Shown here: positions 6,010-40,491 of the stretch, one piece after another
Layout of the letters: the number at the start of each line of letters is the position of its first letter
Numbering within the stretch: position 1 is the stretch's first letter
IMG/VR virus record: IMGVR_UViG_3300005973_000002
DNA length: 64,000 nt
Origin: a virus
Lineage: Duplodnaviria; Caudoviricetes
Strand: one strand, 5' to 3'
Position numbers and translations under genes: made by a program
Notes under the pieces: model-generated
What the model was told of the DNA's origin: nothing
What the model saw: the letters and a program-made list of their open reading frames with translations, nothing else
Databases searched by the model: none

Positions 6010-6133
6010 AATTCATCCTTGTTTTAGAGAAAATATTTTTATCTTCTCGATTGCAAGAATAATATTGTAAAGGTTACCAGTTTTCTCTTCAAACATCGAT
6101 AACTATGTGATAACGTTAGAAACATAGGTAAAA

Positions 6134-21621: not shown

Positions 21622-22521
21622 ATGTCCAAACCATATGATTATGAAAAAAGTGTAGCATTAATCTACGAAAATGATTCGCATCGTGGACCAGGCAAAGTGG
21701 TTCAAAATCTAAAACTTGGCCTTGAGAAGATTGGTGTTTCGGTTATTCCTGAATATAGTGGCCACCCTTGGAAGTACACAGGTTGCTTACAGTTTTGTAA
21801 GCCGCAATTAATTTCAAGTTATGCATCTACTGGACGCCCTATGCTCATGGGCCCGAACTTGTTTGTTTTACCTACCGATAATCCATCTCTGTGCAAGCTA
21901 TTCCAGCACTTTGTTGTGCCATCTGAGTGGGTGAAAAAAACGTATCAAGAATTTGATTTGATGAATGGAAAAAACATTCATGTTTGGTCTGTTGGTATTG
22001 ACACTGATGTTTGGAAACCGTCCGAGCAAGGTAAAACAGGTGATATAGATTGCATCGTTTACTTTAAAAATCGTTCCGACCAAGACCTAGCTGTTGTTGA
22101 AGCGATTTGTCGAAAATTTGATTTAAAGTATGAGCTTTTCAAATATGGCAGTTATCTAGAACAGGATCTGCATAAGTCAGCCACAACAAAAGCCAAGTTT
22201 GCTATTCTTTGCACGGGAACAGAGAGTCAAGGTATTGCTTACATGCAGTTACTTTCGGCTGGGTTACCTTGTTATGTTTTTAACAATCCACTTTGGAAAT
22301 CTGAAGACGGGAAACATACAGCAGTAGCTTCTTCTGTGCCATATTTTGACGAACGTTGCGGATACGTAATCAACAACGTTGATCTTGATCACTTCAAAGA
22401 GTTCTTAAAAAATATTGATAATTTTCATCCAAGAGACTATATCCTAGATAAACACACTCTTGAAGAAGCAGCACAAAAATACTTTGACCTGTTGAGAACA
22501 AGCAATGGCGAACAACTCTGA
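21622..22521 (+). CDS. Glycosyltransferase, GT-B-like
   Basis: GPGKV, MGPN, VPSEWV, GIDTDVWKP and ESQGIAYMQLLSAGLP. Confidence 0.7.
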   Translation: MSKPYDYEKSVALIYENDSHRGPGKVVQNLKLGLEKIGVSVIPEYSGHPWKYTGCLQFCKPQLISSYASTGRPMLMGPNLFVLPTDNPSLCKLFQHFVVPSEWVKKTYQEFDLMNGKNIHVWSVGIDTDVWKPSEQGKTGDIDCIVYFKNRSDQDLAVVEAICRKFDLKYELFKYGSYLEQDLHKSATTKAKFAILCTGTESQGIAYMQLLSAGLPCYVFNNPLWKSEDGKHTAVASSVPYFDERCGYVINNVDLDHFKEFLKNIDNFHPRDYILDKHTLEEAAQKYFDLLRTSNGEQL

Positions 22522-23371
22522 AAAACCACTAGTATCTTGCATAACCCCATCTTTCCGCATGGAGAGATACCTTAAAACCTTTCTGGATCGATTGCCGGAG
22601 CAAACTATTTTTGATCGAATACAAGTGGTGCTTGATCATAATGAACCAACTGAACAAGAACTTTCCTGGGTTAAAGAATTTGAAGAAAAGTATCCTGGAG
22701 TTATCAAACACGTTGTGGTTGATCCGGTAGAGCCAATTGGTATTTCAATGAACCGTTGCATTAATTTGGCTGATGGAGATTTTGTTGCCATTTGGAACGT
22801 TGATGACTTACGCACTCCTGATAGTCTTGAAAAACAAGCTAATGTCTTGTTAGAAAATGAAGATGTTGATGTTGTGCATGGTAACTTTGTTATTGTTAAT
22901 TCATTTCCCCATTTCAAGGGAAAGATGATTGATCATAGTCAATACAAGTTCAATCAAAAAGAATATACACGCAGTATGGTTCTTGGGCCATTTTTTATGT
23001 GGCGCAAATCTCTTTGCGACAAGGCAGGAAAATTTGACGAGCAATTGAAGTCTGGAGCTGATTTTGATCTTGCAATCCGGTTGGCAATACACGGTAAAGT
23101 TGATATAGCGCACGGAGTGCTTGGCTACTACCTTGACGAAGGCCGGGGGGCTTCAACACGTGGTGACAGCATTCAACCAATTGAACGTACCTTGATTGAA
23201 ATGAGATACGGAATATTGGATAAACTTGTTCACAGTTGGATGCCCGAAGTGAACAAAAGAAAATACATTGTAGAAAAACTAGTCTTTGATAATAAAGCAC
23301 ACCGAATTGAAGATTATGTTCCGGACTATTCAAACTTTCGGCACAGAAACACCAAGCTGGCCAAATCCTGA
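22505..23371 (+). CDS. Glycosyltransferase family 2
   Basis: PLVSCITPSF, NRCINLADGDFVAIWNVDD and DFDLAIR. Confidence 0.85.
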   Translation: MANNSEKPLVSCITPSFRMERYLKTFLDRLPEQTIFDRIQVVLDHNEPTEQELSWVKEFEEKYPGVIKHVVVDPVEPIGISMNRCINLADGDFVAIWNVDDLRTPDSLEKQANVLLENEDVDVVHGNFVIVNSFPHFKGKMIDHSQYKFNQKEYTRSMVLGPFFMWRKSLCDKAGKFDEQLKSGADFDLAIRLAIHGKVDIAHGVLGYYLDEGRGASTRGDSIQPIERTLIEMRYGILDKLVHSWMPEVNKRKYIVEKLVFDNKAHRIEDYVPDYSNFRHRNTKLAKS

Positions 23372-23380
23372 GAGGAAAGC

Positions 23381-24274
23381 ATGACAGAAAAAATGAGAAT
23401 TATGGCTTTATTGCCATTTCGAAATGAAGCCCATGTGCTTCCATCTTATTTTTCAACCGTTGCTCCACTGGTTGAAAAGATTATTGCAATTGATGATGGT
23501 TCCACAGACAATTCAGTAGAAATTATGAAAAAGGCTGGTGCTGACGTTTATTCTTGGGACAAAGAAAGAATGAAGTTCGGTTGGGCTGAATTGGGTATCC
23601 GGCAAAGACTTTTGGAGTTGGGCCGTGAGGCTGGAGGTACTCATTTTATTGTTTTAGATGCTGATGAAACGTTTACTCGCCCCTTTGTGGGAGTTTCGAC
23701 CAAAGTTTTCCGACAACTGGAGCCTGGTCAAAAAGTTTTAATGCAATGGTTAGCAATGTGGAAATCCGTTGACCATTACCGAGATGACAATAGTGTATGG
23801 AGTAACAACTATAAAGATTTCATTTTTAGGGATGATGGCGAAAGCAACTATCCAGAAGTTTGGATGCATACTCCACGAACTCCGGGTCGATTTGCGAATC
23901 ATGACCAAGATTTGACATTAAATCCAAAGTATGGTGCAGTAATGCACTTTCAATTTAGCAACTGGGATACATTTCAAATCAAACAGTGCTGGTGTCGAAT
24001 GTCTGAATTTATCAAAGATCCAGAATCGGCACAAAATGTCAATAACAAATATAGGATAACACTAGATGAAGATGCTGTAGTAATGCCACTGCCCGACAAT
24101 TGGAAAGAGGGCGTAAAACTACCAAAAATATCTTACCAAGATGACGTTTATTCTTTTTGGCGCTTAAAGGAAATAGAAAACTGGTTTGAAATTCATGGTG
24201 TAGATTTTTTCCGCAACCTAGAAATCTGGCATGTGCCACAAATTTGTGAGGTATCAAAGCGTTATGAAAAGTAA
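23381..24274 (+). CDS. Glycosyltransferase family 2-like
   Basis: PFRNE, IDDGSTD and VLDADE (DxD). Confidence 0.85.
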   Translation: MTEKMRIMALLPFRNEAHVLPSYFSTVAPLVEKIIAIDDGSTDNSVEIMKKAGADVYSWDKERMKFGWAELGIRQRLLELGREAGGTHFIVLDADETFTRPFVGVSTKVFRQLEPGQKVLMQWLAMWKSVDHYRDDNSVWSNNYKDFIFRDDGESNYPEVWMHTPRTPGRFANHDQDLTLNPKYGAVMHFQFSNWDTFQIKQCWCRMSEFIKDPESAQNVNNKYRITLDEDAVVMPLPDNWKEGVKLPKISYQDDVYSFWRLKEIENWFEIHGVDFFRNLEIWHVPQICEVSKRYEK

Positions 24275-25256
24275 AGCACTTGTTACAGGCGCCGCAGGGT
24301 TATTTGGTGCTAACTACTGCAAATATCTTTGTGATAAGGGTTATGAAGTCATTGGAATGGACAACCTGTCTGGTGGTTATCGAGACTTTGTAGATTCACG
24401 TGTAGAATTCTACCCCTGGGATATAAAACACACTTTTAGCGTCAACGAAGTATTTGAAGCACACAAACCGGACTACGTTGTTCATTTTGCGGCATACGCA
24501 GCGTGTGGATTGTCGCCGTTTATTCGTATTTTTAACTACGAAAACAACATCATTACGTCTGCCAATCTAATCAACGAAGCCATTCGCTTTGATGTCAAGA
24601 AATTCATTTTTGCGTCGTCAATGACCGTTTATGGTGATAATCCACCGCCTTTTACCGAGGACATGCCTTACAATCCCTCAGACCCATATGCTATAGCTAA
24701 AATGGCTGTTGAACTTGATTTAAAAGATGCCCACCAGCGCCATGGGTTAGATTATGCAATTGTGCGCCCACATAACGTACATGGTATATATCAAAATATA
24801 TGGGATCGCTATCGTAACGTAATTGGGATCTTCATACGAAAAGCTCTCAACGAAGAGGACTTGCTTGTTTATGGTGATGGTTCACAAATTAGAGCATTTT
24901 CGGATGTAAAATACTATATGGAACCAATTGAGAAGTTAATGTTCGAACATTCAGCAGAAACATTTAATATTGGTGCAGATAAACCAGTAACCATCCTAGA
25001 GCTTGCACAGTTGGTACAAAAAGTGGCTTTCGAATACGGTTACAAAACAAACATCAAACATGCTGAGCCAAGAAAAGAAGTTCATACGGCCTACTGTGAT
25101 CATAGCAAGGCAAAGAAACTTTTAGATTTTGAGGATAAAACCGACCTAGAAGAACTTATTCGTAAAATGTTTGTTTGGGCAGAAGGTCAACCAAACAGAA
25201 AAGTTAAAAAGATGGACATTGAACTAGATAAAAGACTTTATTCATACTGGAAATAG
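24264..25256 (+). CDS. NAD-dependent nucleotide-sugar epimerase/dehydratase
   Basis: TGAAGLFG, SSMTVYG, YAIAK and RPHNVHG. ATG at 24264 preferred. Confidence 0.9.
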   Translation: MKSKALVTGAAGLFGANYCKYLCDKGYEVIGMDNLSGGYRDFVDSRVEFYPWDIKHTFSVNEVFEAHKPDYVVHFAAYAACGLSPFIRIFNYENNIITSANLINEAIRFDVKKFIFASSMTVYGDNPPPFTEDMPYNPSDPYAIAKMAVELDLKDAHQRHGLDYAIVRPHNVHGIYQNIWDRYRNVIGIFIRKALNEEDLLVYGDGSQIRAFSDVKYYMEPIEKLMFEHSAETFNIGADKPVTILELAQLVQKVAFEYGYKTNIKHAEPRKEVHTAYCDHSKAKKLLDFEDKTDLEELIRKMFVWAEGQPNRKVKKMDIELDKRLYSYWK

Positions 25257-25257
25257 T

Positions 25258-26127
25258 ATGAAGTTTATTCACGTTCAATACGACATCATACAATCTGATT
25301 GGAAGGTGTTGCAAGTAGGCGGATCACGTCAACCGTTCCGACGTGCTAATGTTGTTATTGATCCACGTCCATGGGCAGAACGCAGCAAAACAAATTCCTG
25401 GGTTCAAACCATTCCGGAATATTTTTCCGAAAGGACTTGGTTTACGCAGCCGCTCGAAGAAACTCCTTGGCCTTTTGCTGATGAAGAGTTTGATTATGTT
25501 ATAGTTGACGATGCTATCGTTTCAACACGTGATCCGATTGCAGTTTGTCGTGAGATGGAACGGGTTGCCAAGCGTGGATATATTGAATTTCCTAATGTAG
25601 TTGCACAGCATCTACGTGGTGTTGAAGACCCAAATTATACCGGATACATCAATCATCGTTGGTTCGCTGACGTGGTGGACAATGCCATTCGCTTTAGTTA
25701 TAAACACCCTTCGGTGCATGTTAAAAAAGACTTTTGGATAGACAATCCAAAGTTACCAGTGCAGCCCTGGATTAATCCAAAGAAGGCGGTGGAAGGTCTG
25801 TTTTGGGATGCAAGTCTTCAATCTTATGAAGATTATGAAAATATGGAATTTCCAGACTGGTTCTTCGAAGAAAACACTTGGAAATATAAAGAGCAAACTG
25901 CAAATGAACAGCAGTTTAAAAACTTTTGGAAGGTTGATGAACCAATCCCAGTCATGTTGGAATGTAGACCATTTCAGGCTGGCACTTTAGTTCGAGTAAA
26001 TGATTTGCCATTTAAATTTGCCGTTTCAATGTTCACAAATAAAAATGAGCGACACATGGAAATGTTGAAATTCGAGCATTACATCGCAGAGAACATAAAC
26101 AATAAATACCATAAGTACCAACTTTAA
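25258..26127 (+). CDS. SAM-dependent methyltransferase-like protein
   Basis: WPFADEEFDYVI...DP...EMERVAKRGYIEFP. Confidence 0.6.
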   Translation: MKFIHVQYDIIQSDWKVLQVGGSRQPFRRANVVIDPRPWAERSKTNSWVQTIPEYFSERTWFTQPLEETPWPFADEEFDYVIVDDAIVSTRDPIAVCREMERVAKRGYIEFPNVVAQHLRGVEDPNYTGYINHRWFADVVDNAIRFSYKHPSVHVKKDFWIDNPKLPVQPWINPKKAVEGLFWDASLQSYEDYENMEFPDWFFEENTWKYKEQTANEQQFKNFWKVDEPIPVMLECRPFQAGTLVRVNDLPFKFAVSMFTNKNERHMEMLKFEHYIAENINNKYHKYQL

Positions 26128-26130
26128 TAC

Positions 26131-26730
26131 ATGAATTCGAAATATAAAAAAGAAAACTATGTTCACCTTGAAGATCATTGGAAAAAATATATGCCCAATG
26201 TTCTTTTTCAGCACTACAGAAAACTTTTTCAAGGCAAAATAGGAGATTTTGGCTGTAATACTGGGTTGTTTGATATCCATCTCGCAGAAATGGAAAGAGT
26301 AAACGAAGTTATTGGCTTTGATATAAATGAAGAAGCTATTAAAAAGGCAAAAGAATTTGCAGCAGTTTCACCAGTAAAATCAAAACTAAAATTTCACTGT
26401 CAAAACCTAACAGAAAAAATTGAATACGACAGTTACTTTGATTTTGTTATTTGTTTCCACACTATAGAACACATCTACCCTGAAGATGTTGATGATTGTG
26501 TACGTAATATTTTTACCTCGCTTAAAGTAGGGGGCTATGCACTGATAAATTTGCCTGATAAGCATTCATATCCTTGGGAGGAAACTCACGTATTCCATCC
26601 CAACAAAGAAGAATTATCAAAGCTCTTCGAAGTGCACGGTTTCTCTACGGTTGAAGCTTATGAAGATGAGCGAGGTGGCCAAGTTGGACACTCAAGAAAC
26701 ATCACTGCACTTTACCTAAAGGAGTTGTAA
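26131..26730 (+). CDS. Class I SAM-dependent methyltransferase
   Basis: IGDFGCNTG, GFDIN, FDFVICFHTIEH and LKVGG. Confidence 0.9.
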   Translation: MNSKYKKENYVHLEDHWKKYMPNVLFQHYRKLFQGKIGDFGCNTGLFDIHLAEMERVNEVIGFDINEEAIKKAKEFAAVSPVKSKLKFHCQNLTEKIEYDSYFDFVICFHTIEHIYPEDVDDCVRNIFTSLKVGGYALINLPDKHSYPWEETHVFHPNKEELSKLFEVHGFSTVEAYEDERGGQVGHSRNITALYLKEL

Positions 26731-27468
26731 ATGAATTTGGTGGCAAAAAATACATGGATTTTGCACCCGACTTCGGGTCATCCAAACAAAAATACGTTTG
26801 AAACACCTTGGTATAAATCTCCCATTAGAACAAAGGATGTTCCCATCTTTACGGGGTTTTTCAGGGTCGGAAATCATTATCTAATTGAATTGATTCAACG
26901 TTATTTTGAAGCTAATGTTTGGATTGATGGTAGGTTAAAGCCAGAAAACATTATATGCTTCTGGACCCATGATCATGATCATTGCTTGGAGGCTATAACA
27001 CCATGTATGTTTTTATACAGGAAAAATGTATGCCACATGATGTATTCTTTATATAAAAGTCAATATGTCGAGGCTAAAGCGTGTGATGTTAATGTAGAAA
27101 ATTTTATAAAATATAGAGTTAATGATTATAAATACAATACAAATAAATGGCTTAGGAATGCTGATTTAATAATTGAATATGAAAAGCTTGTTTATAAACC
27201 TCAAGAAGAATTTAAAAAAATTGCACAGTTTTTTGGAAAGTTATTTGTTCAAGAAAAATTTGAAAGGGTAAAGAAGGTTATCACACATGATTACGTAATC
27301 GGCAAGTGGAAGAATACGTTGCCAAACTATTTTTTTCATCGGGATGCAAACTACGTCCCTGACAGAAATAAATGGATTGAAAAATTTAAGCCCACTATTT
27401 TTAAACACTTTTTTGATGAAACGCACACTCCTGTTGGTAACTTGGCTGAATTTCTCACTTTAGAATGA
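26731..27468 (+). CDS. Sulfotransferase-like protein
   Basis: GFFRVGNHYL (5'-PSB-like), YRKN...YSLY (3'-PB-like) and IEYEKLVYKPQEEFKKIAQFFG. Confidence 0.6.
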   Translation: MNLVAKNTWILHPTSGHPNKNTFETPWYKSPIRTKDVPIFTGFFRVGNHYLIELIQRYFEANVWIDGRLKPENIICFWTHDHDHCLEAITPCMFLYRKNVCHMMYSLYKSQYVEAKACDVNVENFIKYRVNDYKYNTNKWLRNADLIIEYEKLVYKPQEEFKKIAQFFGKLFVQEKFERVKKVITHDYVIGKWKNTLPNYFFHRDANYVPDRNKWIEKFKPTIFKHFFDETHTPVGNLAEFLTLE

Positions 27469-28403
27469 TGTATGTAGCAAAATGTCCTTTGAGAATTTCT
27501 CTTGTTGGAGGAGGGACAGACCTTGATAATTTTATTAAAAAATACGGCAAAGGTTCAGTTATTAGCTTCCCTTCAACGCTTTATGTTTATGTTAGTATTC
27601 ATGATAACAACCGAAGTCAATATGTCCTAAACTATTCTAAGAACGAAGAAGTAGATGAATTATATGAAGTACAAAACACGCCTGCAAGAATAGTTCTTGG
27701 TCACTACAACACTGGACCAATTACTGTCTCGTTTCTTTCAGACATTATTTCCACAGGCTCAGGACTGGGCTCCTCTTCAGCTTACATGAATGCGCTAACG
27801 AAAGCTGTAACAATGTATAAGAGTGAACAGTTGACTGAATTTGAAGTTTGTAGACAAGCACTGGAACTTGAAAGAAAGTTCAATCCCGAGACTGGCTATC
27901 AAGATTCATATGGCTGTGGCGTTGGAGGATTCAAGCGCATCAACTTTATCAAAGATAGACGTCCCAATTTTTCGTTTTTAGATGGTGATTTTCTTAGAGA
28001 CAATTTTGACATGGCTCTCTATTACACAAAAATAACAAGAGACTCAAATGATATTTTAAAAACGATAAACACAGACCGTTGCTTGCCGCTTCTTACAATG
28101 GTTGATGATCTCGAACAAGCCATAGAAGAACAAAATACTGAAGGTTTCCTTGAAATATTCAACAGAGGTTGGGACATTAAAAAGACAACGTCACCATTAA
28201 TCGCAGATGATGAAAGGTTTCAGAAGTGGAATGAAGAGTTTCAGAAGCACAAAGATGTTCTCGGAATCAAACTTTGCGGAGCTGGTGGTGGTGGTTATTT
28301 TCTAGCTCTATGTAAGAAAGGCTGTGCGCCTAAACAAATAAATGGTTCACAAGCAATACCAATTGGAGTCAACGAAACTGGAGTAGTTGGCCAGAGGTTT
28401 TAA
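27465..28403 (+). CDS. hddA: D-glycero-alpha-D-manno-heptose-7-phosphate kinase (GHMP family)
   Basis: PLRISLVGGGTD, GSGLGSSSA, GYQD, GG and KLCGAGGGGY. Confidence 0.8.
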   Translation: MMYVAKCPLRISLVGGGTDLDNFIKKYGKGSVISFPSTLYVYVSIHDNNRSQYVLNYSKNEEVDELYEVQNTPARIVLGHYNTGPITVSFLSDIISTGSGLGSSSAYMNALTKAVTMYKSEQLTEFEVCRQALELERKFNPETGYQDSYGCGVGGFKRINFIKDRRPNFSFLDGDFLRDNFDMALYYTKITRDSNDILKTINTDRCLPLLTMVDDLEQAIEEQNTEGFLEIFNRGWDIKKTTSPLIADDERFQKWNEEFQKHKDVLGIKLCGAGGGGYFLALCKKGCAPKQINGSQAIPIGVNETGVVGQRF

Positions 28404-28912
28404 TGAACAAAGATGAATTGATAAGAGAAATAGAAAAGGTGTATTCTAAATCTGGTGCGCTTAAAAGCTTGATAGAAGACCATGAGGAAATCATTCTAAT
28501 TGGCAATGGAGCAAGTTGTGCCATAGCTAGCCACATGGCTGTCGATTACACCAAGCAATTAAAAAAGAAAGCATTTGCATTCACTGATGCTTCTAGACTT
28601 ACTTGTTATGTAAATGACTACGGTAGCAATAGAGCTTATGCACAATTTGTAAAAGAATTCGCAACTCCTGGAAAGACTTTAGTGATCCTGATCTCATCAT
28701 CAGGAAACTCCAAGAATATAACGAACGCAGCTAATCGTTGTGAGATTGATGGAGTGGCTTGGGTAGCTTTGTCTGGCAAAGATCACGACAACAAACTTCA
28801 TAGAACCAACTACATGTATAGGAAGTTAAATGTTTGGGTAGAAAGCCAAGACTACGGTGTGGTAGAATGTGTTCATCAAATTCTTTTGCACTCAATTATG
28901 GAAGTAAAGTAA
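28403..28912 (+). CDS. gmhA: Phosphoheptose (sedoheptulose-7-phosphate) isomerase, SIS domain
   Basis: IGNGAS..IASH, SSSGNSKN and VVECVHQILLH. Confidence 0.8.
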   Translation: MNKDELIREIEKVYSKSGALKSLIEDHEEIILIGNGASCAIASHMAVDYTKQLKKKAFAFTDASRLTCYVNDYGSNRAYAQFVKEFATPGKTLVILISSSGNSKNITNAANRCEIDGVAWVALSGKDHDNKLHRTNYMYRKLNVWVESQDYGVVECVHQILLHSIMEVK

Positions 28913-29619
28913 TGGCAACTTTCTGTTTTGACATTGATGGAACAATCTGCACCAATACACTTGGCAAGTATTTGAACGCAAAGCCTTATCCTGATATGTT
29001 ACGACGCATTAATAATCTGTATGACTGTGGACACACCATCATTTTTATGACCGCAAGAGGATGTGTATCTCATGTTGATTATACAGAATTGACAGAAAAA
29101 CAGCTGAATGAATGGGGATTTAAATACCACAAATTAATCACAAATCAGAAGCCGCATGCAGATTTGTTTATTGACGACCGAGCCGTAAATGTGTGCGAAT
29201 GGCGGACTTTGGGTAAAAGAATTGGTTTTGTTGCTAGTTCTTTTGATCTGATTCATCCAGGATACATTATAATGCTCAAAGAAGCCAAGACGGTTTGTGA
29301 GCATCTTGTCTGTGCTCTTCATGTAGATCCATCCACAGAAAGAGACTCAAAAAACCAACCCATACAAACACTTGAAGAGCGGCTGATGGTTTTAGAATCA
29401 ATTCGTTATGTTGACGAAGTTATTATATATAAATCAGAAGATGATTTGTACCAACTTCTTAAAGAAATTTCTCCAGATGTTCGTATTCTTGGCAGTGATT
29501 ACAAAGAAAAAGATTTTACAGGTTCAGATCTCAGTATAGAAATACATTGGCATAACAGAGACCATAGCTGGTCAACGTCAAATCTCAGGCGGAGGATCGC
29601 TAACGCCGAAAACAAATAA
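28912..29619 (+). CDS. Bifunctional HAD phosphatase + cytidylyltransferase-family nucleotidyltransferase
   Basis: FCFDIDGTIC...FMTAR...KP..DLFIDD fused to SFDLIHPGY...ER..VLESIRYVDEV...STSNLRRR. Confidence 0.85.
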   Translation: MATFCFDIDGTICTNTLGKYLNAKPYPDMLRRINNLYDCGHTIIFMTARGCVSHVDYTELTEKQLNEWGFKYHKLITNQKPHADLFIDDRAVNVCEWRTLGKRIGFVASSFDLIHPGYIIMLKEAKTVCEHLVCALHVDPSTERDSKNQPIQTLEERLMVLESIRYVDEVIIYKSEDDLYQLLKEISPDVRILGSDYKEKDFTGSDLSIEIHWHNRDHSWSTSNLRRRIANAENK

Positions 29620-29658
29620 ACTCCTGAAGTATAACCTTAGAACAACGACAGGTGTTTC

Positions 29659-30567
29659 ATGAAAAAGGTACTCGTAACAGGTGGCGCAGGGTTCATTGGT
29701 TCAAACGTTGTTGATCTTCTAGTAGAGAAAGGCCATGATGTTATCGTGGTAGATAATCTTTCTACTGGTTATACTGAAAACTTAAATCCTAAAGCTAAAT
29801 TTTGCAATTTAGATTTGCTTGACAGTAAATTGCTTTTTAAAAAAATGTTGACCGAGTTTGGTCAAATTGATGTTGTGTTTCATCTAGCTGCATTGCCAAG
29901 AGTTGAGCCGAGTATTCATGACCCCGTTGGCTCAAACGAACAGAATGTCACAGCAACACTAAACCTATTTGAAGCTTGTAGGAAAGCGGGAGTTAAAAAT
30001 ATAATCTATTCGTCTTCATCGTCAGTATATGGCGACGCCAAAAATGTTCCAACTGATGAAAACGAACCTGTTGATCCGATGAGTCCTTATGCCTTACAAA
30101 AGCTCATCGGCGATCAATATGCAGAACTGTTCTGTAGGCTATACGATATGAACATCACCTGCCTTCGTTACTTTAACGTCTATGGAAATCGAGAGCCTAC
30201 TGTTGGCGCTTATGTGCCTGTAATCGGTATTTGGTTTAGACAGCTTGCCGAAGGTAAACCTTTGACCATAACAGGAGATGGTAGACAAAGCCGAGATTTT
30301 GTTAACGTGCTTGACGTAGCGAAAGCAAATGTTATGTCTGCCGAAGCTGGATTGAGAGGATATAATGTTTTTAACATTGGTTCAGGAACTACACACGAAC
30401 TAAATTATTTAGCATTACTTATTTCTAAGAACATAACATACATTGCACCAAGGATGGAACCTAGACACACGTGTGCTGATATTTCTCTCATGAAAAACAT
30501 GATTGGATGGAAATCAACTATTAATATTAAAGCCTACATTAGAGAAAAGGTAAGAAATTTAAAATGA
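29659..30567 (+). CDS. NAD-dependent epimerase (UDP-sugar 4-epimerase-like)
   Basis: TGGAGFIG, SSSSVYG, YALQK and LRYFNVYG. Confidence 0.92.
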   Translation: MKKVLVTGGAGFIGSNVVDLLVEKGHDVIVVDNLSTGYTENLNPKAKFCNLDLLDSKLLFKKMLTEFGQIDVVFHLAALPRVEPSIHDPVGSNEQNVTATLNLFEACRKAGVKNIIYSSSSSVYGDAKNVPTDENEPVDPMSPYALQKLIGDQYAELFCRLYDMNITCLRYFNVYGNREPTVGAYVPVIGIWFRQLAEGKPLTITGDGRQSRDFVNVLDVAKANVMSAEAGLRGYNVFNIGSGTTHELNYLALLISKNITYIAPRMEPRHTCADISLMKNMIGWKSTINIKAYIREKVRNLK

Positions 30568-31299
30568 AGACTAAAACTTTACAGGATATATAAAAGAATA
30601 CGAAGATACGGAACTGTGCAATAGTTCAATTATTCTAGACTTTAATCTAGGAACCGATTCTGTTTCTTGGTTAAAAAATCACAGAGATTTTATTGAAACA
30701 TCTTATAAAAAGGGAGTCATCTATGGACATGGAGCAAGATGTTTGCAATACATGTGGAAACTGATCGTGGACCAAATGCCATCTGATTTTTCATTTTTAG
30801 AAATAGGAGTTTACAAAGGTCAAATTTTATCTTTAATTGAGTTATGTGCAAATAAAACAGAAAAAAATTCCAAAATGGTAGGGGTAACTCCACTTTTCGA
30901 TCCTGATTTTGCCAAGTATAACCGCATGCCTTATATTGAAGGAATATTTAAAAACTTTTCACTTACGATGGAAAACACGACCATCATTGATGGAAAGTCA
31001 CAAGATGAAAAGATTGTTGAAAAAGTAAATAATTTAGGTCCGTTTAATATTGTTTATATCGATGGAGATCACTCATATCAGGCAACTGTTGATGACATCA
31101 AAATTATGATAAATGTTTAAAATCGGGCGGTTTTATGATTGTGGATGATGCTAGTAATTTTAAAAAAATCCCAACTTACGCAAGTTCCTTCAAAGGAATC
31201 ATTGAAGTTTCAGAGGCAGTTAGAGATACCCTTGAGAAGGATTCATCTTATGAAGACTTGCTTACCTGTATGCATGTTCGCATTTTTAGAAAGAAATAA
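30564..31299 (+). pseudogene. Class I SAM methyltransferase (Methyltransf_24-like) broken by two single-base frameshifts
   Basis: FLEIGVYKG and YIDGDHSY, with LKSGGFMIVDD in the next frame. Breaks at about 30591 and 31100-31103. The reconstructed ORF overlaps both neighbours (ATGA and TAATG). Confidence 0.8.
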
Positions 31300-32459
31300 T
31301 GATGGAAAAGATAAAAATTGCATTCATTAAATTTTGTGGTTTGGCAGCAGGCGGAACTGAAAAGGCATTGCAAACCATTGCGGCAAATCTTCCGAAGGAT
31401 CGATTTGAAGTAGATTACTATTATTGTGACGCTGCACCATACCTTGGTTCGGATTACAAACATGCCGACACTGATCCATATAGAAAAGCTTATATGGAAA
31501 GTAAAAATGTGAATCTTGTAAAATTTAGTGTCGCCTATAAAGACGTGAGAGATTCAACACACAAATGGATCGATACTAATTTTTGGGAAATGTTTGATGA
31601 AAACAGGTATGACATCATTCAAACCGCCCGAGCAGGTCATCCAGAATATCCTTTTACTCAAATAAATTCAACTCCTCAAGTGGACTTGGTCACATTGCCT
31701 GGAATGGCTGAAAACAAAGTTAATGTAGTTAAAACTGTTCATATTTCAAAGCACCAAGCAGAAACTTGGGTCAAAGCTGGAGGAAATCCTAGTAAAATTG
31801 AAGTTATCCCACTATTTGATGAGCTTCCGACACCACCTAAATTGAACTTTAGAAAGGAATTTAAATTAGAAAATAAATTTGTGTTTGGCTTACATCAGAG
31901 AGTCGATGATGGAATTTTTTCTCCAATTCCATTAACAGCATTCAAAAAGCTTGAAGTCGAATTTGATAATGTTGCTTTCTTATTACTTGGTGGAAGCGAC
32001 AGATATAGAGAACAGGCCGCAACACTTAAATTGCAAAATTTTCATACGCTTCCTCATACCGGAGACAAGCAAAGTATTTCAAAGTTTTTAAACACATTAA
32101 ATGCCTATGCTCACGGACGTTCAGATGGAGAAACTTTCTCATTGGCTATCAGCGAGGCAATGAGTTATGGATTGCCGATAATAAGCCACGCCGCTCCAGC
32201 AATGGGCCACGTGGAGACAATAGGAGAAGCTGGAGTTGTGGTAGACAGTTTGGAAGCATATGTCAACACAATGAAAAAGCTTGTGCAGGATAAAGACTAT
32301 TACAAAATTGTTTCAAACAAAGCTGCCGAACGTTTTCAAAACCATCTTTCTTTGAATGTTAATATTGCAAAGTTCATAACACTATATGAACATGTGTATC
32401 AATCAAATCGCCTTATAAAGGCCGATGATGGCTGGTTGTCTGAATGGATAGAAAATTAA
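31299..32459 (+). CDS. Glycosyltransferase family 4
   Basis: GGTEK and ETFSLAISEAMSYGLPII. Confidence 0.9.
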   Translation: MMEKIKIAFIKFCGLAAGGTEKALQTIAANLPKDRFEVDYYYCDAAPYLGSDYKHADTDPYRKAYMESKNVNLVKFSVAYKDVRDSTHKWIDTNFWEMFDENRYDIIQTARAGHPEYPFTQINSTPQVDLVTLPGMAENKVNVVKTVHISKHQAETWVKAGGNPSKIEVIPLFDELPTPPKLNFRKEFKLENKFVFGLHQRVDDGIFSPIPLTAFKKLEVEFDNVAFLLLGGSDRYREQAATLKLQNFHTLPHTGDKQSISKFLNTLNAYAHGRSDGETFSLAISEAMSYGLPIISHAAPAMGHVETIGEAGVVVDSLEAYVNTMKKLVQDKDYYKIVSNKAAERFQNHLSLNVNIAKFITLYEHVYQSNRLIKADDGWLSEWIEN

Positions 32460-32460
32460 A

Positions 32461-33333
32461 ATGATAAAACATCAAAACGTCACACCCTGTCGTAAAAGCA
32501 TAATGGTGTTGGGGGGTTCTGGACAAATCGGTCGGCCTCTTTGTGACTTTTTGTATAGGCGAGGGTGTAAAGTATACAATGTTGATCTTGTTCTTGGCAA
32601 AGACCATGATTTAAGAAACTCACAAAATATTGCATCGTATTGGATGTCTCAAGTAGATTTTGTTTATTTTTTAGCTTTCGACATTGGTGGTTCTAAATTT
32701 CTCAAATTAAAACAAGATGACTGCACATTTTTAATGAATAATATGAAGATAATGACCAGTGTATTTGATATGCTTGAAACTCACAAAAAACCATTTGTTT
32801 TTGCCTCTTCATCAATGGCTGAAATGCCTTGGTCTCCATACGGAAATCTCAAGAAAGTTGGGGAGCATTTTACAGAATCTCTGGGTGGTGTCTCAACACG
32901 CTTTTGGAATATCTATGGACCAGAGCATGATGACATGAGAGCGCACGTCATTACTGATTTTATTAAAAAGGCAAAAAATACCGGCGTAATCAACATGTTG
33001 ACTAACGGTTCGGAAGTTAGGCAGTTTTTGCATGCTAAAGACTGCTCTGAAATTCTTTTGACACTTGCTGAACGATTTGATGAAGTTAAAAAATATAAAA
33101 AATTGGATGTTAGTAACGGAGTTTGGTCTTCTATTGGTCAAGTGGCAGAATTGGTTGCTGCTCACTACAAAGTAGATATTATAAAAGCTCCTCATGAGGA
33201 TACGGTACAAAACGACAGCAGGATTGAACCAAATTTGGACACATTGTGTAAATTTTGGAATCCAAAAAATTCAATTACATTAAAAGATGGCATTGTTGAC
33301 ATGATCAAATATTACGAGAAAAATGATGGCTGA
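32461..33333 (+). CDS. NAD-dependent epimerase/dehydratase (divergent)
   Basis: GGSGQIG, ASSS, YGNLK and RFWNIYG. Confidence 0.85.
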   Translation: MIKHQNVTPCRKSIMVLGGSGQIGRPLCDFLYRRGCKVYNVDLVLGKDHDLRNSQNIASYWMSQVDFVYFLAFDIGGSKFLKLKQDDCTFLMNNMKIMTSVFDMLETHKKPFVFASSSMAEMPWSPYGNLKKVGEHFTESLGGVSTRFWNIYGPEHDDMRAHVITDFIKKAKNTGVINMLTNGSEVRQFLHAKDCSEILLTLAERFDEVKKYKKLDVSNGVWSSIGQVAELVAAHYKVDIIKAPHEDTVQNDSRIEPNLDTLCKFWNPKNSITLKDGIVDMIKYYEKNDG

Positions 33334-34264
33334 TTTGCTTGTTACGGGCGGCACCGGAATGGTCGGGCAAGCCATTCGCAAACTTCTCCCTAAAGACTTT
33401 GACGTTGCTCTTGTTGGTTCGAAAGATTACGATCTAACCAACCCAACAAAAGCTCGAAAAATGGTTAGAGAGCTAAAACCAAAAAAAATCATTCACCTAG
33501 CAGCAAAAGTTGGTGGTGTAAAAGCCAACACTGAGAAGGTCGCAGAATTCTTTAATGAGAACATTTTAATAAACACAAATGTGCTGATGGCTGCTGACAA
33601 ATATGATGTTCAACACGTTGTCTCAATGTTGAGCACTTGTGTGTATCCAGATGTCAAGTGGGTAACCTATCCGTTGACCGAAACACAGCTTCATAAAGGA
33701 CCACCGCACGATTCAAACTTTGGATACGCTTATGCAAAAAGAATGCTAGAAGTTCAATCAAGAGCTTATAGAAAGCAAAAGGGTAGAAACTACACAACAG
33801 CTATTCCAAACAACATCTACGGACCTCATGATAACTTCGATTTAGAAGATGGACATGTGGTTCCAGCGGTTATCCGTAAGATATATGAGGCCAAACTAAA
33901 AGGAACCAATGTAACTTTCTGGGGCGATGGCTCAGCTCTCCGTGAGTTTACCTTTTCAGAAGATATTGCTGCATGTCTCCTAAAAATGGTAGGTTGTCCT
34001 ACTGGTGAAATGTACGATAGTTCAATTCCATGCAATATTGGTATATCTGTTGAAACTTCAATCAAAGAATTGGTAGAAACCGTAACTGAAATTTTTGAAT
34101 TCAAAGGCAGAATAAACTGGGACACAACCAAACCCGCTGGGCAATATCGCAAACCAAGTAGTGCCGGCAGAATTAACCATGACTACAAGCCTCTAAGAGA
34201 AGGGCTGGAAATTACTTGTGAGTGGTTTGAAAAAACATATCCTGATGTACGTGGTGTTAAGTAA
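33323..34264 (+). CDS. fcl: GDP-L-fucose synthase (GDP-4-keto-6-deoxymannose epimerase/reductase)
   Basis: GGTGMVG, AAKVGGVKAN, STCVYP, YAYAKR, PNNIYGPHDNF, HVVPA and WGDGSALREF. Confidence 0.9.
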   Translation: MMADLLVTGGTGMVGQAIRKLLPKDFDVALVGSKDYDLTNPTKARKMVRELKPKKIIHLAAKVGGVKANTEKVAEFFNENILINTNVLMAADKYDVQHVVSMLSTCVYPDVKWVTYPLTETQLHKGPPHDSNFGYAYAKRMLEVQSRAYRKQKGRNYTTAIPNNIYGPHDNFDLEDGHVVPAVIRKIYEAKLKGTNVTFWGDGSALREFTFSEDIAACLLKMVGCPTGEMYDSSIPCNIGISVETSIKELVETVTEIFEFKGRINWDTTKPAGQYRKPSSAGRINHDYKPLREGLEITCEWFEKTYPDVRGVK

Positions 34265-34291
34265 AACATTTAATTCAACTAGATAGAGACT

Positions 34292-35287
34292 GTGAACATG
34301 TACAAACCTTATGACAAACGCACTGCGCTTATTAGCGGAATAACGGGACAGGATGGTTCATATTTGGCTGAACTTCTATTAGACAAAGGCTACAAGAAGG
34401 TTGTTGGTCTAAGACGTAGAACTTCCACTTTCAACACTGAACGAGTAGAGCACTTCTATCATAATCCAAGATTTTGGATGGAGTGGGGCAACATGACCGA
34501 CAGCCATTCTTTATGGCGAGTGTTAACCAAGTGGAAACCAGATGAAGTTTACAATCTTGCAGCTCAGTCTCATGTGAGAGTTTCATTTGACGTTCCTGAA
34601 GAGACGCTTGACGTAGTTGCAATGGGAACAATGAAGCTCTTAAATGTTTGTAAAGAGATTGTTCCCGAGGCCAGAATTTATCAGGCTTCATCGTCTGAAA
34701 TGTATGGAGATAATCCTGAAACTCCTCAGAATGAGGAGACAAGAATGACTCCTGCGTCGCCATACGCTTGTGCAAAACTTTTTGCGCATAATCTTTGTCG
34801 CAACTATCGTGAAGGATATGGCATGCACATTTCTTGCGGAATTCTGTTCAATCACGAATCAGAACGCAGGGGGGAAACCTTTGTAACTAGAAAGATCACT
34901 CAAGCTGCCGCCAAAATCAAACTTGGCAAACAAGAAATTCTTGAGCTTGGTAATCTTGGTGCTAAAAGAGACTGGGGCCATGCTTCTGATTATGTATACG
35001 GAATGTGGCTAATGCTTCAACAGGACAAACCTGATGATTATGTCCTTGCTACAGGTGAAACACATACTGTTAAAGAATTTCTCGACGAAGTATTTGCTCA
35101 TGCCGGTCTTGACGTTGACAAACACGTTAGAATTAACCCGAAATATTTCCGCCCACACGAGGTTCCTCTTCTTTTGGGTGATCCAACTAAAGCAAAGACA
35201 AAGCTGGGTTGGGAGCCTAAAATCAAATTCAAAGAACTTGCTAAATTGATGTACGAGGCCGATCTTGAAAAAGAAATAGGTTTATAA
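34292..35287 (+). CDS. gmd: GDP-mannose 4,6-dehydratase
   Basis: GITGQDGSYL, NLAAQSHV, QASSSEMYG, SPYACAK, LFNHES and RDWGHA. Confidence 0.95.
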   Translation: MNMYKPYDKRTALISGITGQDGSYLAELLLDKGYKKVVGLRRRTSTFNTERVEHFYHNPRFWMEWGNMTDSHSLWRVLTKWKPDEVYNLAAQSHVRVSFDVPEETLDVVAMGTMKLLNVCKEIVPEARIYQASSSEMYGDNPETPQNEETRMTPASPYACAKLFAHNLCRNYREGYGMHISCGILFNHESERRGETFVTRKITQAAAKIKLGKQEILELGNLGAKRDWGHASDYVYGMWLMLQQDKPDDYVLATGETHTVKEFLDEVFAHAGLDVDKHVRINPKYFRPHEVPLLLGDPTKAKTKLGWEPKIKFKELAKLMYEADLEKEIGL

Positions 35288-35355
35288 CAAGTACGGATTG
35301 AACAAAAATAGCAATAACCAAGAGAATAGTAACCAGAAGGAAAGTCAAAGTATCC

Positions 35356-36933
35356 ATGACCGAATCACTACTAACTGTAGATAATGAACTTCTTGGCGAT
35401 GATCTTTTCATCAAGCCAAAGAAAAAGAAAAAGATCCTAATGTTGTCTGATCATCCGCTTGCGCCATCAGGCGTGGGTGTTCAGGCAAGATTCCTCATTG
35501 AGGGCTTAATCAACACGGGCAAATATAGTTTTCGTTGCCTTGGTGGTGCGATCAAGCACCAGGATTATAGAACAATAAAAGTAAACGATGATTTTATCAT
35601 AAAACCAGTAGATGGTTTTGGCACTCATGAGATGATTCGTAGTTTGCTTGTGACTGAAAAGCCAGATGCGCTTATTATTTTTACAGATCCAAGACAATTC
35701 ATTTGGTTATGGGAAATTGAAGATGAAATTCATCAAGTTTGTCCGATTACTTACTGGCACGTATGGGACAATGATCCATATCCTGCTTTCAACAGACCTT
35801 GGTATGAGTCAACAGATTTAATCAACTGCCTCTCTTACAAGACTTATGAATTGATCAAACCACATTTTCCTGAAAAGACTCATTACATCCCACATGCTTT
35901 TCCAAAGCATGTTTATTATGAGCTTCCAAAAGAACAGGTTGACAACCTTGCTTCTCAAAATTTTGGACCAAGAGCAAATTGGTTTAAAGCTCTTTGGGTA
36001 AACCGAAATGCAACTCGTAAATTACCAGCCGATGTTCTTAGTGCTTGGAAAGTTTTCTTAGACAAACTTGAGGCAAAACATGGTCATCGAAACGCTGTTT
36101 TGATCATGCATACAGACCCAGGTGACGCCGAGGGCCCAAATCTACTTGCCGTGGCAGAAATGCTAGGTCTTCAAAACAATGTTTGGTTTTCAACAGATAA
36201 GCTTGGTTTTGATAGAATGAATATTCTGCACAATCTTGTTGATACTGTAGTAAACGTTTCAAAAAATGAAGGATTCGGACTTTCTACTCTTATTTCTTTG
36301 CAAGTCGGCAAACCGATTATCGCCTTAAAAACCGGAGGAGAAACACGTAAAGTTGTTGATTATAGGGATGGAACTGAAATTGGAGTTGGGCTCGATCCGA
36401 TTAAACGTTGTCTCGTAGGTTCACAACTTGTCCCATATATCTATGAAGATTTTGCAGGAACAGAAGAGCTTGCAAATGCCTTCCTTACGGTTCATGATTA
36501 CACCCCTGAAGAGAAGGCCAAACTTAGAGAAAAGGCTTTGGACTACGTTGATTTTGAATACAATCATGAAGACATCGTAAGACGATGGGATGAGACATTA
36601 ACAAAATGTATCGAAAATTTTGAGTCTGGGAACACCAATAGGTGGAGCATCCAAAAAATTGAACCAGTTGTTCCTGGTCAGGGTGAAGAAGCTGTTGTTG
36701 ATAGAAATCCTAGCAGGCTCGAACAAGCAAAGCAAGCACAGATTGCAGCTGATGCAGTTAAAACTCAACAATTCATGCAAACATCATTAGGCAGTGCCGA
36801 AGCAGGTTCAACAAAGACTGTTTCGAAGGGCAGGAAGAAAGTTTCTACTACAAAATCAACCGCTAAGCCTAAAAACGACTCAGTAAAAACAACAACAAAA
36901 AAATCCAACAAAAAGAGGAAGAAAAGGAAGTAA
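35356..36933 (+). CDS. Glycosyltransferase family 4 with Lys/Thr-rich C-terminal tail
   Basis: SGVGVQ, NRNATRK and NEGFGLSTL. Confidence 0.88.
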   Translation: MTESLLTVDNELLGDDLFIKPKKKKKILMLSDHPLAPSGVGVQARFLIEGLINTGKYSFRCLGGAIKHQDYRTIKVNDDFIIKPVDGFGTHEMIRSLLVTEKPDALIIFTDPRQFIWLWEIEDEIHQVCPITYWHVWDNDPYPAFNRPWYESTDLINCLSYKTYELIKPHFPEKTHYIPHAFPKHVYYELPKEQVDNLASQNFGPRANWFKALWVNRNATRKLPADVLSAWKVFLDKLEAKHGHRNAVLIMHTDPGDAEGPNLLAVAEMLGLQNNVWFSTDKLGFDRMNILHNLVDTVVNVSKNEGFGLSTLISLQVGKPIIALKTGGETRKVVDYRDGTEIGVGLDPIKRCLVGSQLVPYIYEDFAGTEELANAFLTVHDYTPEEKAKLREKALDYVDFEYNHEDIVRRWDETLTKCIENFESGNTNRWSIQKIEPVVPGQGEEAVVDRNPSRLEQAKQAQIAADAVKTQQFMQTSLGSAEAGSTKTVSKGRKKVSTTKSTAKPKNDSVKTTTKKSNKKRKKRK

Positions 36934-36934
36934 T

Positions 36935-38233
36935 ATGACTGACGACAAAAGAAAAATTGAAAGCGCACAACTTCCTCCAATGGAAGGGTTGTTGTCGGGT
37001 CCAAGTGCACCCAAATTTAATCCAGGCACACAAACCAAAAAAGTTATTCTTAGGGCTCCTGTGCTTACACAATCGGGCTATGGTGTGCATTCTAGGCAGG
37101 TTGCTCGATGGTTGTTTGATCAAATGGACCAAAGGGATGACCTTGAAGTATTTGTTGAGCCGCTACAATGGGGTGTTACTCCTTGGGTTGTAAATACTGA
37201 TTCTTATGATGGACTTATTGGTAGATTGGTTCAGCACTCAACCCAATCAGATCATTATGATGTGTCACTACAACTTCAACTTCCCAACGAGTGGAATCCA
37301 TTTTTAGCTGATTACAACATCGGAATTACTGCTGCTGTTGAAACAGATAAGTGCAATCAGGAATGGGTAAAGCATGTAAACCAAATGGACATGGTTATTG
37401 TTCCATCAGAATTTGTAAAATCTGTAATCCACAATGCTGGTGTTGAGGTTACGACAAAAATAGTCGTGGTGCCAGAAGCATTTACAGACGCATGTTTGGA
37501 TGACGCACTTAATGTTTCTGAAAACGGAAGCTATGATACAGTGATAAATCTTTCGAACATAGAAACCGAATTTAATTTTCTGGTTTTTGGTCAATTTTGT
37601 GGCAACAATCCTGACAATGATCGAAAAAATTTAGCATACACGATTAAGTGGATGTCGGAAGTATTCGCCGAAAATCCCGATGTCGGAGTAATAGTAAAAA
37701 CAAATTTTGGTCGCAACACCAAGCTTGACAAACTAAACACAACAAATATTCTTGCAAAAGTCCTCCTTGAAACCAAAAAAGGCCCAGGGCCAAAGTTTTA
37801 CCTTCTTCACGGAAACATGTCAGATGAAGAAGTGGCAGGACTTTATCGTCATGATAAAGTAAAAGCTCTCGTTAGCCTCACAAGGGGTGAGGGCTTTGGC
37901 TTACCAATTCTTGAAGCAGCTGCTTGTGGACTTCCAGTTATTGTAACGAATTGGAGTGCACACACTGAATTTCTCGGACAAGGTAAGTATGTTAAGGTAG
38001 ATTACCGACTTAGACCAATCCACGAATCAAGGGTTGACAATAAGATTTTCTTCTCTGGTATGCAGTGGGCAAACCCTGACGAGTCGGATGCAAAAAGAAA
38101 ACTTCAGAAGTTTTACCGCAGTCCCGGCCTGCCCCAAAAATGGGCAAAGGAGCTTGCGACGAAGCTACAAAAAACGCATAGCTTTAAGGCCATCAGCGAT
38201 AGATACTCGGAAGTTCTAAAAGATATAATATAA
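36935..38233 (+). CDS. Glycosyltransferase family 4
   Basis: SGYGVHSR, RKN and GEGFGLPILEAAACGLPVI. Confidence 0.9.
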   Translation: MTDDKRKIESAQLPPMEGLLSGPSAPKFNPGTQTKKVILRAPVLTQSGYGVHSRQVARWLFDQMDQRDDLEVFVEPLQWGVTPWVVNTDSYDGLIGRLVQHSTQSDHYDVSLQLQLPNEWNPFLADYNIGITAAVETDKCNQEWVKHVNQMDMVIVPSEFVKSVIHNAGVEVTTKIVVVPEAFTDACLDDALNVSENGSYDTVINLSNIETEFNFLVFGQFCGNNPDNDRKNLAYTIKWMSEVFAENPDVGVIVKTNFGRNTKLDKLNTTNILAKVLLETKKGPGPKFYLLHGNMSDEEVAGLYRHDKVKALVSLTRGEGFGLPILEAAACGLPVIVTNWSAHTEFLGQGKYVKVDYRLRPIHESRVDNKIFFSGMQWANPDESDAKRKLQKFYRSPGLPQKWAKELATKLQKTHSFKAISDRYSEVLKDII

Positions 38234-39504: not shown

Positions 39505-40491
39505 TTAAGGAAGTAGAGGATTATCATACTTGAACATGAAGTAGGCATCATCATCGCCGTCTTCATCTTCTATCTCTTCTTTGTCGAATGATTGCTCAAT
39601 ATCAATACTATCCCATTCATCAACCGGAATCCAATTAGTTCCGTCCCAAACATCGATATAATCAGCGTCAATTCCATCAGGAATAATGTATGCACCTGCG
39701 ACTGCGTCTTTAGAACCCAACTCGTCGTCAAATAAATCGTCTTCCAGGAATGCAGCTGGGTCGATTTTTAAGACCACAGGCACCAATCCATCTTCAAGAG
39801 GATTGTCACTATTATGCTCTGCAAATTGTTCTGCTCTGTTGAACCAAAAACTAACACCATCATCTTCTGTCAGAAAGACACCTTTCTTAGAATGAGCATC
39901 ATAACCACCAGCACCGATAGACCTAGCCATCCCCGGCCTCAATCCAGCCTCTGAGATGCCGCCTAAGCGGTTGAAGTAAGTTACATGATACAGAGGGTCG
40001 TTAATTTCCGAACCGTCTATAACCTCTTTTACAATATTATTAAAGCGTCGCTTTTTGATGGGTTGATTTCTGAAATACTCTATAATATCTTTTTCTGATG
40101 GTAGATCACGCCTACCCAACGCCACGCCTAACCAACCAATCATAGGAACGTCTCTATTTGGGAGACCTAAACCTGAACCTCGTGCATCGTTACATGGATA
40201 ACAAGACCAGGCGAGGTTCCACCTATCAAATTTGGGGCCTCCAAGAGAGCGTAGAATGATGTGTTCGACACCAACTAAAGTTTTTTCTCCACAAAAGGCA
40301 CAGCTTTTACCAACTCTTTCTTTTTTAAGTCGGCCAACTCTCCAACCTGTAGGTCTGTTCTGTTTTGATTTCAGATTTTTTAACCACTCTATGTAATCAG
40401 CAGCGTGTTTAACATCGGCCCCATCCAAACTTTCTGCAAGTTGTTGGAACTCTTCATCAACAAGCAATTCAATCAATGTTTTGATGGACAT
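39505..40491 (-). CDS. HNH nuclease domain fused to an ADP-ribosyltransferase-like domain
   Basis: CAFC...EHIILRSLGG...NLAWSCYPCN, then LYHVT...GISEAGLRP...GVFLT. Confidence 0.6.
   Translation of the reverse strand: MSIKTLIELLVDEEFQQLAESLDGADVKHAADYIEWLKNLKSKQNRPTGWRVGRLKKERVGKSCAFCGEKTLVGVEHIILRSLGGPKFDRWNLAWSCYPCNDARGSGLGLPNRDVPMIGWLGVALGRRDLPSEKDIIEYFRNQPIKKRRFNNIVKEVIDGSEINDPLYHVTYFNRLGGISEAGLRPGMARSIGAGGYDAHSKKGVFLTEDDGVSFWFNRAEQFAEHNSDNPLEDGLVPVVLKIDPAAFLEDDLFDDELGSKDAVAGAYIIPDGIDADYIDVWDGTNWIPVDEWDSIDIEQSFDKEEIEDEDGDDDAYFMFKYDNPLLP

Follow-up and report, generated by a model that had tools for sequence, protein, structure and literature searches.

A candidate nucleotide-heptose cassette with a phosphatase–nucleotidyltransferase fusion in the glycan island of a hypersaline-lake phage

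To our knowledge, the nucleotide-heptose series established so far are ADP-beta and GDP-alpha alone; CDP- and UDP-beta variants were reportedly described in 2024. Two commentaries (among them PMC11461863) on a cross-kingdom survey of that year (Tang et al. 2024) list three enzyme architectures, namely mono-domain, kinase/nucleotidyltransferase and isomerase/kinase/nucleotidyltransferase, and describe the phosphatase as absent in viruses. In a phage route to another donor, UDP-arabinose, the phosphatase AfhF takes the distal phosphate off a sugar-1,5-bisphosphate before the nucleotidyltransferase acts (PMC13326640). Here we analyzed a four-gene locus in a 64,000-nucleotide stretch of viral DNA (Caudoviricetes; IMG/VR record IMGVR_UViG_3300005973_000002), hereafter the window, which encodes a GHMP kinase, a SIS isomerase, a fusion of a HAD phosphatase with a cytidylyltransferase-fold domain, and a short-chain dehydrogenase/reductase (SDR). 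We consider the four genes best explained as a self-contained sugar-activation cassette, whose logic would be that of the known heptose pathways. The cassette probably makes a nucleoside-diphosphate (NDP)-heptose of some kind, and we favor, with a probability of roughly 0.55, a heptose donor that is neither of the two classical ones.

In the proposed pathway, sedoheptulose-7-phosphate would be converted to heptose-7-phosphate by the GmhA-like isomerase, phosphorylated at O1 by the HddA-like GHMP kinase (the family precedent being the alpha-1,7-bisphosphate), relieved of its distal phosphate by the N-terminal HAD domain of the fusion, and coupled at once, as heptose-1-phosphate, to a nucleoside monophosphate by the fused cytidylyltransferase-fold domain. 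The GalE-like SDR would then epimerize the NDP-heptose, probably at C4, and the glycosyltransferases of the phage glycan island around the cassette would draw on the product, a third nucleotide-heptose. HldE fuses the second and fourth of these steps, whereas the present fusion joins the consecutive phosphatase and transferase steps.

Predicted sugar-phosphate enzymes of the cassette

Profile and structure matches recovered the three genes named by an earlier, sequence-only reading of this DNA, all on the + strand: an HddA-type kinase, GmhA, and a HAD domain fused to a cytidylyltransferase-family domain carrying STSNLRRR. The top NCBIfam model of the kinase was HddA (NF049969; 89 bits, under the curated cut-off of 600), and its top PDB matches were heptose-7-phosphate kinases (4n3o, 3k85 and WcbL 4usk), all over the full length, with E values from 1e-16 to 4e-12. 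Mutation of WcbL residues R13, D22, S118-120, Q162 or D163 abolishes activity (PMC4691232), and these essential residues are kept in the kinase as R10, D19, S103-105, Q146 and D147, each at least 95% conserved among 58 relatives. By sequence, the cassette kinase is thus placed as a distant paralogue of HddA, a family whose characterized kinases bind and make the alpha-anomer (PMC4691232).

The SIS protein scored 59.6 bits against the GmhA model TIGR00441 (curated cut-off 209), and its PDB matches were GmhA entries at E 1e-10. Its significant matches in NCBIfam and PDB were to GmhA or DiaA alone, with none to KdsD-type arabinose-5-phosphate isomerase. The catalytic and metal residues of Escherichia coli GmhA, H61, E65, Q172 and H180, aligned to the chemically similar H, D, H and H, and the substrate-binding GmhA signatures NDFG and STSGNS read NDYG and SSSGNS.

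In the HAD domain, motifs I-IV are all present (D7/D9, T47, K80 and D88-D89) and do not vary among 24 relatives. Of the solved proteins, the domain is nearest to PDB 9iqw (E 9e-14, 39% identity), AfhF of phage HY126, a D-arabinose 1,5-diphosphate phosphatase. TIGR01689 matched weakly (22.9 bits, under the cut-off of 162), and BLASTP against E. coli GmhB gave no significant similarity, only a 41-residue segment at 22% identity. These matches assign the domain to the AfhF / TIGR01689 family of capless HADs, of sugar-1,ω-bisphosphate phosphatase type; it is not a GmhB homologue. Since AfhF acts just before nucleotide activation, the distal-phosphate trimming proposed here would be the known job of the family. 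Elsewhere, a HAD domain of this type forms one protein with a class IV aminotransferase, beside NeuB and a CMP-sugar synthetase (L111 1492-2919, Pseudomonadota genome G049), and about 10 of 401 sampled genomes have the HAD domain at the start of an open frame of 420-540 amino acids (aa); the family appears to serve the nonulosonic-acid pathway as well.

The fourth gene encodes a probable NDP-sugar 4-epimerase, judging from its closest relatives, which are UDP-hexose/HexNAc 4-epimerases (6dnt at 190 bits, 4zrm and WbpP); HldD (1eq2), the heptose 6-epimerase, scored 95 bits.

A pentose or hexose phosphate might be activated in place of a heptose (ribulose-5-phosphate to arabinose-5-phosphate, or fructose-6-phosphate to mannose-6-phosphate), yielding an NDP-pentose or NDP-hexose. 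Every enzyme scores far under its heptose family cut-off, the closest solved phosphatase uses D-arabinose-1,5-bisphosphate in the phage UDP-arabinose route, and the epimerase is nearest to UDP-hexose 4-epimerases. Moreover, the cultured Synechococcus phage SynMITS9220M01, which carries the same cassette, holds a second GHMP kinase far nearer to HddA (287 bits vs 89), and the cassette kinase may therefore use another sugar. However, the SIS matches are confined to GmhA and DiaA, with the GmhA signature residues kept, the top kinase matches are all heptokinases, with the WcbL sugar-binding residues kept, and the arabinose route uses another kinase and another transferase fold (AfhE). Taken together, we regard a different sugar as unlikely and retain a heptose as the preferred substrate.

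The HxGY transferase domain

The C-terminal domain of the fusion matched PF01467 (CTP_transf_like, E 3e-13). It scored 85.5 bits against TIGR02199 (rfaE_dom_II, cut-off 181.5) and 65.1 bits against TagD, also below that model's cut-off. Among NCBIfam models, rfaE_dom_II scored best for each of the 24 family members tested, with all relatives under the cut-off; a canonical viral example (L086:2564-3154) reached 181.3 bits. The predicted structure (pLDDT, the predicted local distance difference test, 89) displayed an HldC/TagD-like fold, with Foldseek ranking HldC 5xf2 first, followed by TagD and Fom1. The set is thus hybrid, as the sequence-only reading had it, combining an HddA-like GHMP kinase with a transferase of the HldC/TagD fold and not of the HddC fold.

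Two motifs set this domain apart. Where HldE, TagD and ECT read HxGH (HAGH in E. coli HldE), the fusion reads HPGY and its family HxGY. Near the C-terminus, where WSTSNLRRRI is found, the window reads R-D-H-S-W-S-T-S and the family R-x-H-x-(W/Y/F)-S-T-S, against (F/L)XXGXSTT in HldE/HldC and F-E-D-G-C-S-T-T in E. coli HldE. Docking of BpHldC placed TNG, NSD, EXTP and KGG in contact with beta-heptose-1-phosphate and stacked the F of FEHDRSTT on the adenine (PMC7993394); these elements read ASS, HVD, EDDL, LGS and R in the window.

A careful tree placed the window in a clade made up entirely of HxGY sequences (51 rows, support 83/83), nested in a larger clade of 87 rows with a long stem and 99/100 support, which leaves out the HldE-II domains of E. 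coli and Woeseiaceae and the P-SSM2-type transferases. In a quick tree the window had fallen among HxGH rows, at forks that lacked support; we rejected this placement, as the careful search with close relatives gave the HxGY clade. A Woeseiaceae metagenome-assembled genome encodes a free-standing 133-aa transferase with the motif HMGY (L009 6016-6417), which shares 47% identity with the domain in the window and whose neighbors are non-glycan genes for glycine cleavage, an HhH-GPD glycosylase, a glyoxalase and a pyridoxal-phosphate enzyme. This genome (G002) has a full HldE besides its stand-alone HxGY paralogue, so the HxGY enzymes are not simply the HldC of that organism.

Alternatively, the domain could be a TagD-like enzyme that supplies phospho-sugar or teichoic-acid-like transfer with a CDP-alcohol, be it CDP-glycerol, a CDP-polyol or a sugar CDP-linked through a non-anomeric phosphate. 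In single-sequence searches the domain scored higher for ECT and TagD than for HldC, its STT motif starts with R, as does RTEGISTT of TagD (1coz), and relatives are labeled glycerol-3-phosphate cytidylyltransferase in the source databases. Such an enzyme would, however, not explain why its partners are invariably a GHMP kinase of anomeric type, a GmhA-like isomerase and a phosphatase of bisphosphate type; profile scores place rfaE_dom_II above TagD in all members, and no enzyme of glycerol- or polyol-phosphate synthesis turned up among the four genes of the cassette. We therefore consider a CDP-alcohol product highly improbable, and the NDP-heptose remains the reading that we pursue below.

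Distribution and coexistence with the classical heptose routes

The cassette is common in marine and saline phages and is mostly viral. In IMG/VR, relatives of the fusion are encoded on at least 588 stretches. The sequence-only reading had named, as counting against its proposal, a fusion that is common and makes the ordinary product; the first half of this is what we found. Among 80 fetched IMG/VR loci, 64 contain a long open reading frame (ORF) for the fusion, and 53 display the GHMP-SIS-fusion-SDR set in the same order, which makes the set a conserved unit and no chance neighborhood; in seven more, three of the four genes are contiguous. Clustering at 90% gave 644 relatives of the fusion, at least 120 of them full length among the matches listed.

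In the 50% library, 79 fusion representatives were found at E < 1e-30, including fusions in reversed order and fusions to glycosyltransferase family 2 (GT2) or TylF-type methyltransferase domains; the latter two kinds fit an NDP-sugar product. Reversed transferase-HAD proteins are P0122, P0148 and P0196, and larger fusions with an N-terminal GT2 or a C-terminal TylF-type O-methyltransferase are P0125 (515 aa), P0126 (442 aa) and L056 5989-7320. Since in P0126 and L056 a TylF-like methyltransferase is joined to the C-terminus of the HAD-transferase protein, it is possible, if tentative, that the methyltransferase gene downstream of the cassette in the window provides a tailoring step.

SynMITS9220M01 has the four genes in the same order, with the fusion annotated as 'hypothetical protein', and its genome note lists neighboring genes as lipopolysaccharide heptose genes (PMC7378029). 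The same order occurs on a Mycobacterium-like chromosome (CP023435.1), beside hadABC-secE-nusG-rplKA. No full-length fusion was found among the 401 sampled Pseudomonadota genomes. Look-alike clusters in the ESM Atlas were 98-100% viral; rows hinting at HAD-transferase fusions in archaea, bacteria and giant viruses had scores below 0.9 and are candidates only. Our literature search found no description of the cassette, nor of any pairing between an HldC-fold transferase and a GHMP kinase.

Three kinds of module occur in marine phages: a PfkB HldA-like kinase with an HldC-like transferase, a canonical-like HddA with an HddC-like NTP_transferase, and the present cassette. In five viral contigs, a PfkB (HldA-like) kinase, a nucleotidyltransferase and a cupin lie directly upstream of the cassette, and in SynMITS9220M01 the cassette is accompanied by the canonical-like HddA, a cupin and an HddC-like NTP_transferase. 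Coexisting with either classical route, the cassette would most simply make something else. Neither a PfkB homologue nor an NTP_transferase homologue (HddC fold) was found in the window. In Prochlorococcus phage P-SSM2 (L002), PSSM2_311 (6086-6430), annotated 'phosphoheptose isomerase', belongs to the AfhF/TIGR01689-type HAD phosphatases, and PSSM2_312 (6411-6767), annotated 'cysteine dioxygenase', is a small cupin whose relatives match the C-terminal family of mannose-6-phosphate isomerase; given these family matches, both annotations look wrong, and the cupin may be the isomerase or NDP-sugar epimerase of its module.

The coexistence bears on whether the cassette could yield the ordinary product, its GHMP kinase, AfhF-type HAD and transferase (of what we call clade X) replacing HldA, GmhB and HldC. 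The top rank of rfaE_dom_II in all 24 members tested would fit this, as would a central DxSxxRxKxxxP...ER stretch that is HldE-II-like and the PfkB kinases adjoining some clade-X transferases (L085-L087, L094); all viral enzyme sets tested by Tang et al. 2024 gave ADP-heptose, according to the commentaries. However, such a product would be redundant in the five contigs where an HldA/HldC-like pair adjoins the cassette, characterized HddA-family kinases give the alpha-anomer, the HldC sugar- and adenine-contact positions are unconserved, and the genome with a canonical HldE retains the HxGY paralogue too. We consider the ordinary product improbable, about as much so as a non-heptose sugar, and continue to favor a distinct heptose donor.

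Beyond the pentose-acting relative of the phosphatase and the second SynMITS9220M01 kinase, several points weigh against this preferred reading. The three pathway enzymes all lie far under the curated family cut-offs, so the identity of the substrate is extrapolated. The second His of HxGH is catalytically important in TagD, and we assume activity with Tyr in its place. For HldC, the substrate contacts that we compared were obtained by docking and not from the structure of a complex. The link between HxGY and GHMP kinase traces to about one evolutionary event, with three state changes on the tree, and with about one origin the many co-occurrences were not counted as independent evidence of co-evolution. 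Finally, of two sister fusions one lies beside a PfkB kinase (L094) and the other beside a GHMP kinase (L089), so the kinase family may not dictate the specificity of the transferase. It is because of the distant HddA paralogue, the pentose phosphatase relative, the single inherited cassette and this kinase split that we word sugar, anomer and base conditionally.

The non-standard product suggested by the sequence-only reading is thus favored by the conserved unit, the coexistence with both classical routes and the differences at HldC contacts. As a tentative specification, less likely to be right than wrong, the product might be an alpha-anomeric and/or pyrimidine-linked (e.g., CDP-) D-glycero-D-heptose, 4-epimerized by the SDR; with its HxGY motif, the domain would then be without precedent among known cytidylyltransferase-fold enzymes in accepting an alpha-sugar-1-phosphate, and marine and hypersaline phages would widely use the product as a donor for glycans of the virion or the host surface. 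ALPK1 agonists are beta-anomers. The relevance to ALPK1 that had been raised for this locus is weak: alpha-anomers are what kinases of this family make, and the DNA comes from an environmental phage of hypersaline lakes, so the link is speculative and medical relevance doubtful.

Genomic setting and comparison with known systems

The cassette genes have overlapping start and stop codons and are translationally coupled (Table 1). The fusion almost certainly starts at its ATG, which overlaps the TAA stop of the isomerase (TAATG) and to whose position the starts of all 24 aligned relatives are equivalent; the TTG start at 28834 listed by the ORF finder is an artefact.

Table 1. Coordinates of the cassette, its fusion domains and the neighboring methyltransferase in the window
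Feature	Coordinates	Strand	Pfam	Remark
GHMP kinase, divergent HddA-like sugar-1-kinase (predicted), 312 aa	27465..28403	+	PF00288	
GmhA-like SIS isomerase (predicted), 169 aa	28403..28912	+		
HAD-transferase fusion, 235 aa	28912..29619	+		start ATG 28912
HAD phosphatase domain, AfhF / TIGR01689 type	28912..29211	+		fusion residues 1-100
Cytidylyltransferase-fold nucleotidyltransferase domain, HxGY subclade	29221..29619	+	PF01467	fusion residues 104-235
GalE/WbpP-like SDR	29659..30567	+	PF01370	fourth cassette member, outside the range of the sequence-only reading
Methyltransf_24 (TylF-like) methyltransferase	30743..31120	+	PF13578	

The cassette lies within a 16-kb block of + strand glycan genes (21622-38233). 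The block encodes two GT2 and three GT4 (glycosyltransferase family 4) proteins, several SDRs, three or four methyltransferases, a GDP-mannose 4,6-dehydratase (429 bits) and a weak sulfotransferase-like ORF, and adjoins three structural-looking proteins of 1080-1534 aa; no flippase or polymerase was found among the scanned ORFs. The window is phage-like, with a tape-measure-like protein, a baseplate wedge protein and homing endonucleases, the last probably being the - strand GIY-YIG and HNH genes (8429-9319 and 39505-40491) that flank the structural and glycan region. The 666-aa protein encoded at 2383-4383 matches PHROG 388 strongly and contains a nucleotidyltransferase domain of RlaP type (pol-beta superfamily); no family was assigned to its long C-terminal part. 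We also considered a role of the glycan island in DNA glycosylation and found it unsupported in the window: this protein has a weak thymidylate-synthase PHROG match, and its Pfam match is to the RlaP-type nucleotidyltransferase alone. The window is present in five hypersaline-lake metagenomes and was found on contigs of 461,030-461,086 bp (~461 kb) in several assemblies, which points to a jumbo phage genome, complete or nearly so, as its source. Comparison with 50,697 phage records gave no nucleotide similarity.

If the distinct heptose donor is borne out, phage glycobiology would gain a sugar donor made by a third heptose route. The phosphatase step, which according to the commentaries was not found in viruses by the 2024 survey, would then be accounted for, and the HIGH-motif nucleotidyltransferase fold would be seen to work with Tyr replacing the second His. 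The cassette is directly testable, as the cultured SynMITS9220M01 carries it.

Among known systems, the ADP-heptose pathway has the four steps proposed for the cassette (isomerase, kinase, phosphatase and nucleotidyltransferase), the same transferase fold and a GmhA-type isomerase, which the SIS protein of the cassette resembles. The cassette differs from it in having a GHMP and not a PfkB kinase (HldA or HldE domain I), an AfhF-type and not a GmhB-type HAD-IIIA phosphatase, the motifs HxGY and R..W-STS in place of HxGH and (F/L)XXGXSTT, and a GalE-like instead of an HldD-like epimerase; its phosphatase-transferase fusion is also none of the three architectures listed in the commentaries. With the GDP-D-glycero-alpha-D-manno-heptose pathway (GmhA, HddA/WcbL, GmhB/WcbN and HddC/WcbM), the cassette shares the catalytic and sugar-binding residues of the HddA-family kinase and, by resemblance, the GmhA-type isomerase, whereas its transferase has the cytidylyltransferase (HIGH/STT) fold and not the NTP_transferase fold of HddC. 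The phage UDP-arabinose route AfhE/AfhF, which leads to arabinosyl-5-hydroxycytosine DNA in HY126, RB69 and DLP3 (PMC13326640), resembles the cassette in its homologous HAD, with the role proposed here, and in its phage setting, but has its own KdsD-type isomerase, an APH/choline-kinase-like kinase fused to a MurU-like transferase, a pentose and a DNA acceptor. Finally, the P-SSM2-type cyanophage module (nucleotidyltransferase, PfkB kinase, HAD, cupin and SDR) shares a homologous HAD, a related transferase and a viral glycan island with the cassette, and is distinguished by separate HAD and nucleotidyltransferase genes, a PfkB HldA-like kinase (148 bits), the HxGH motif, and a cupin instead of the SIS isomerase.

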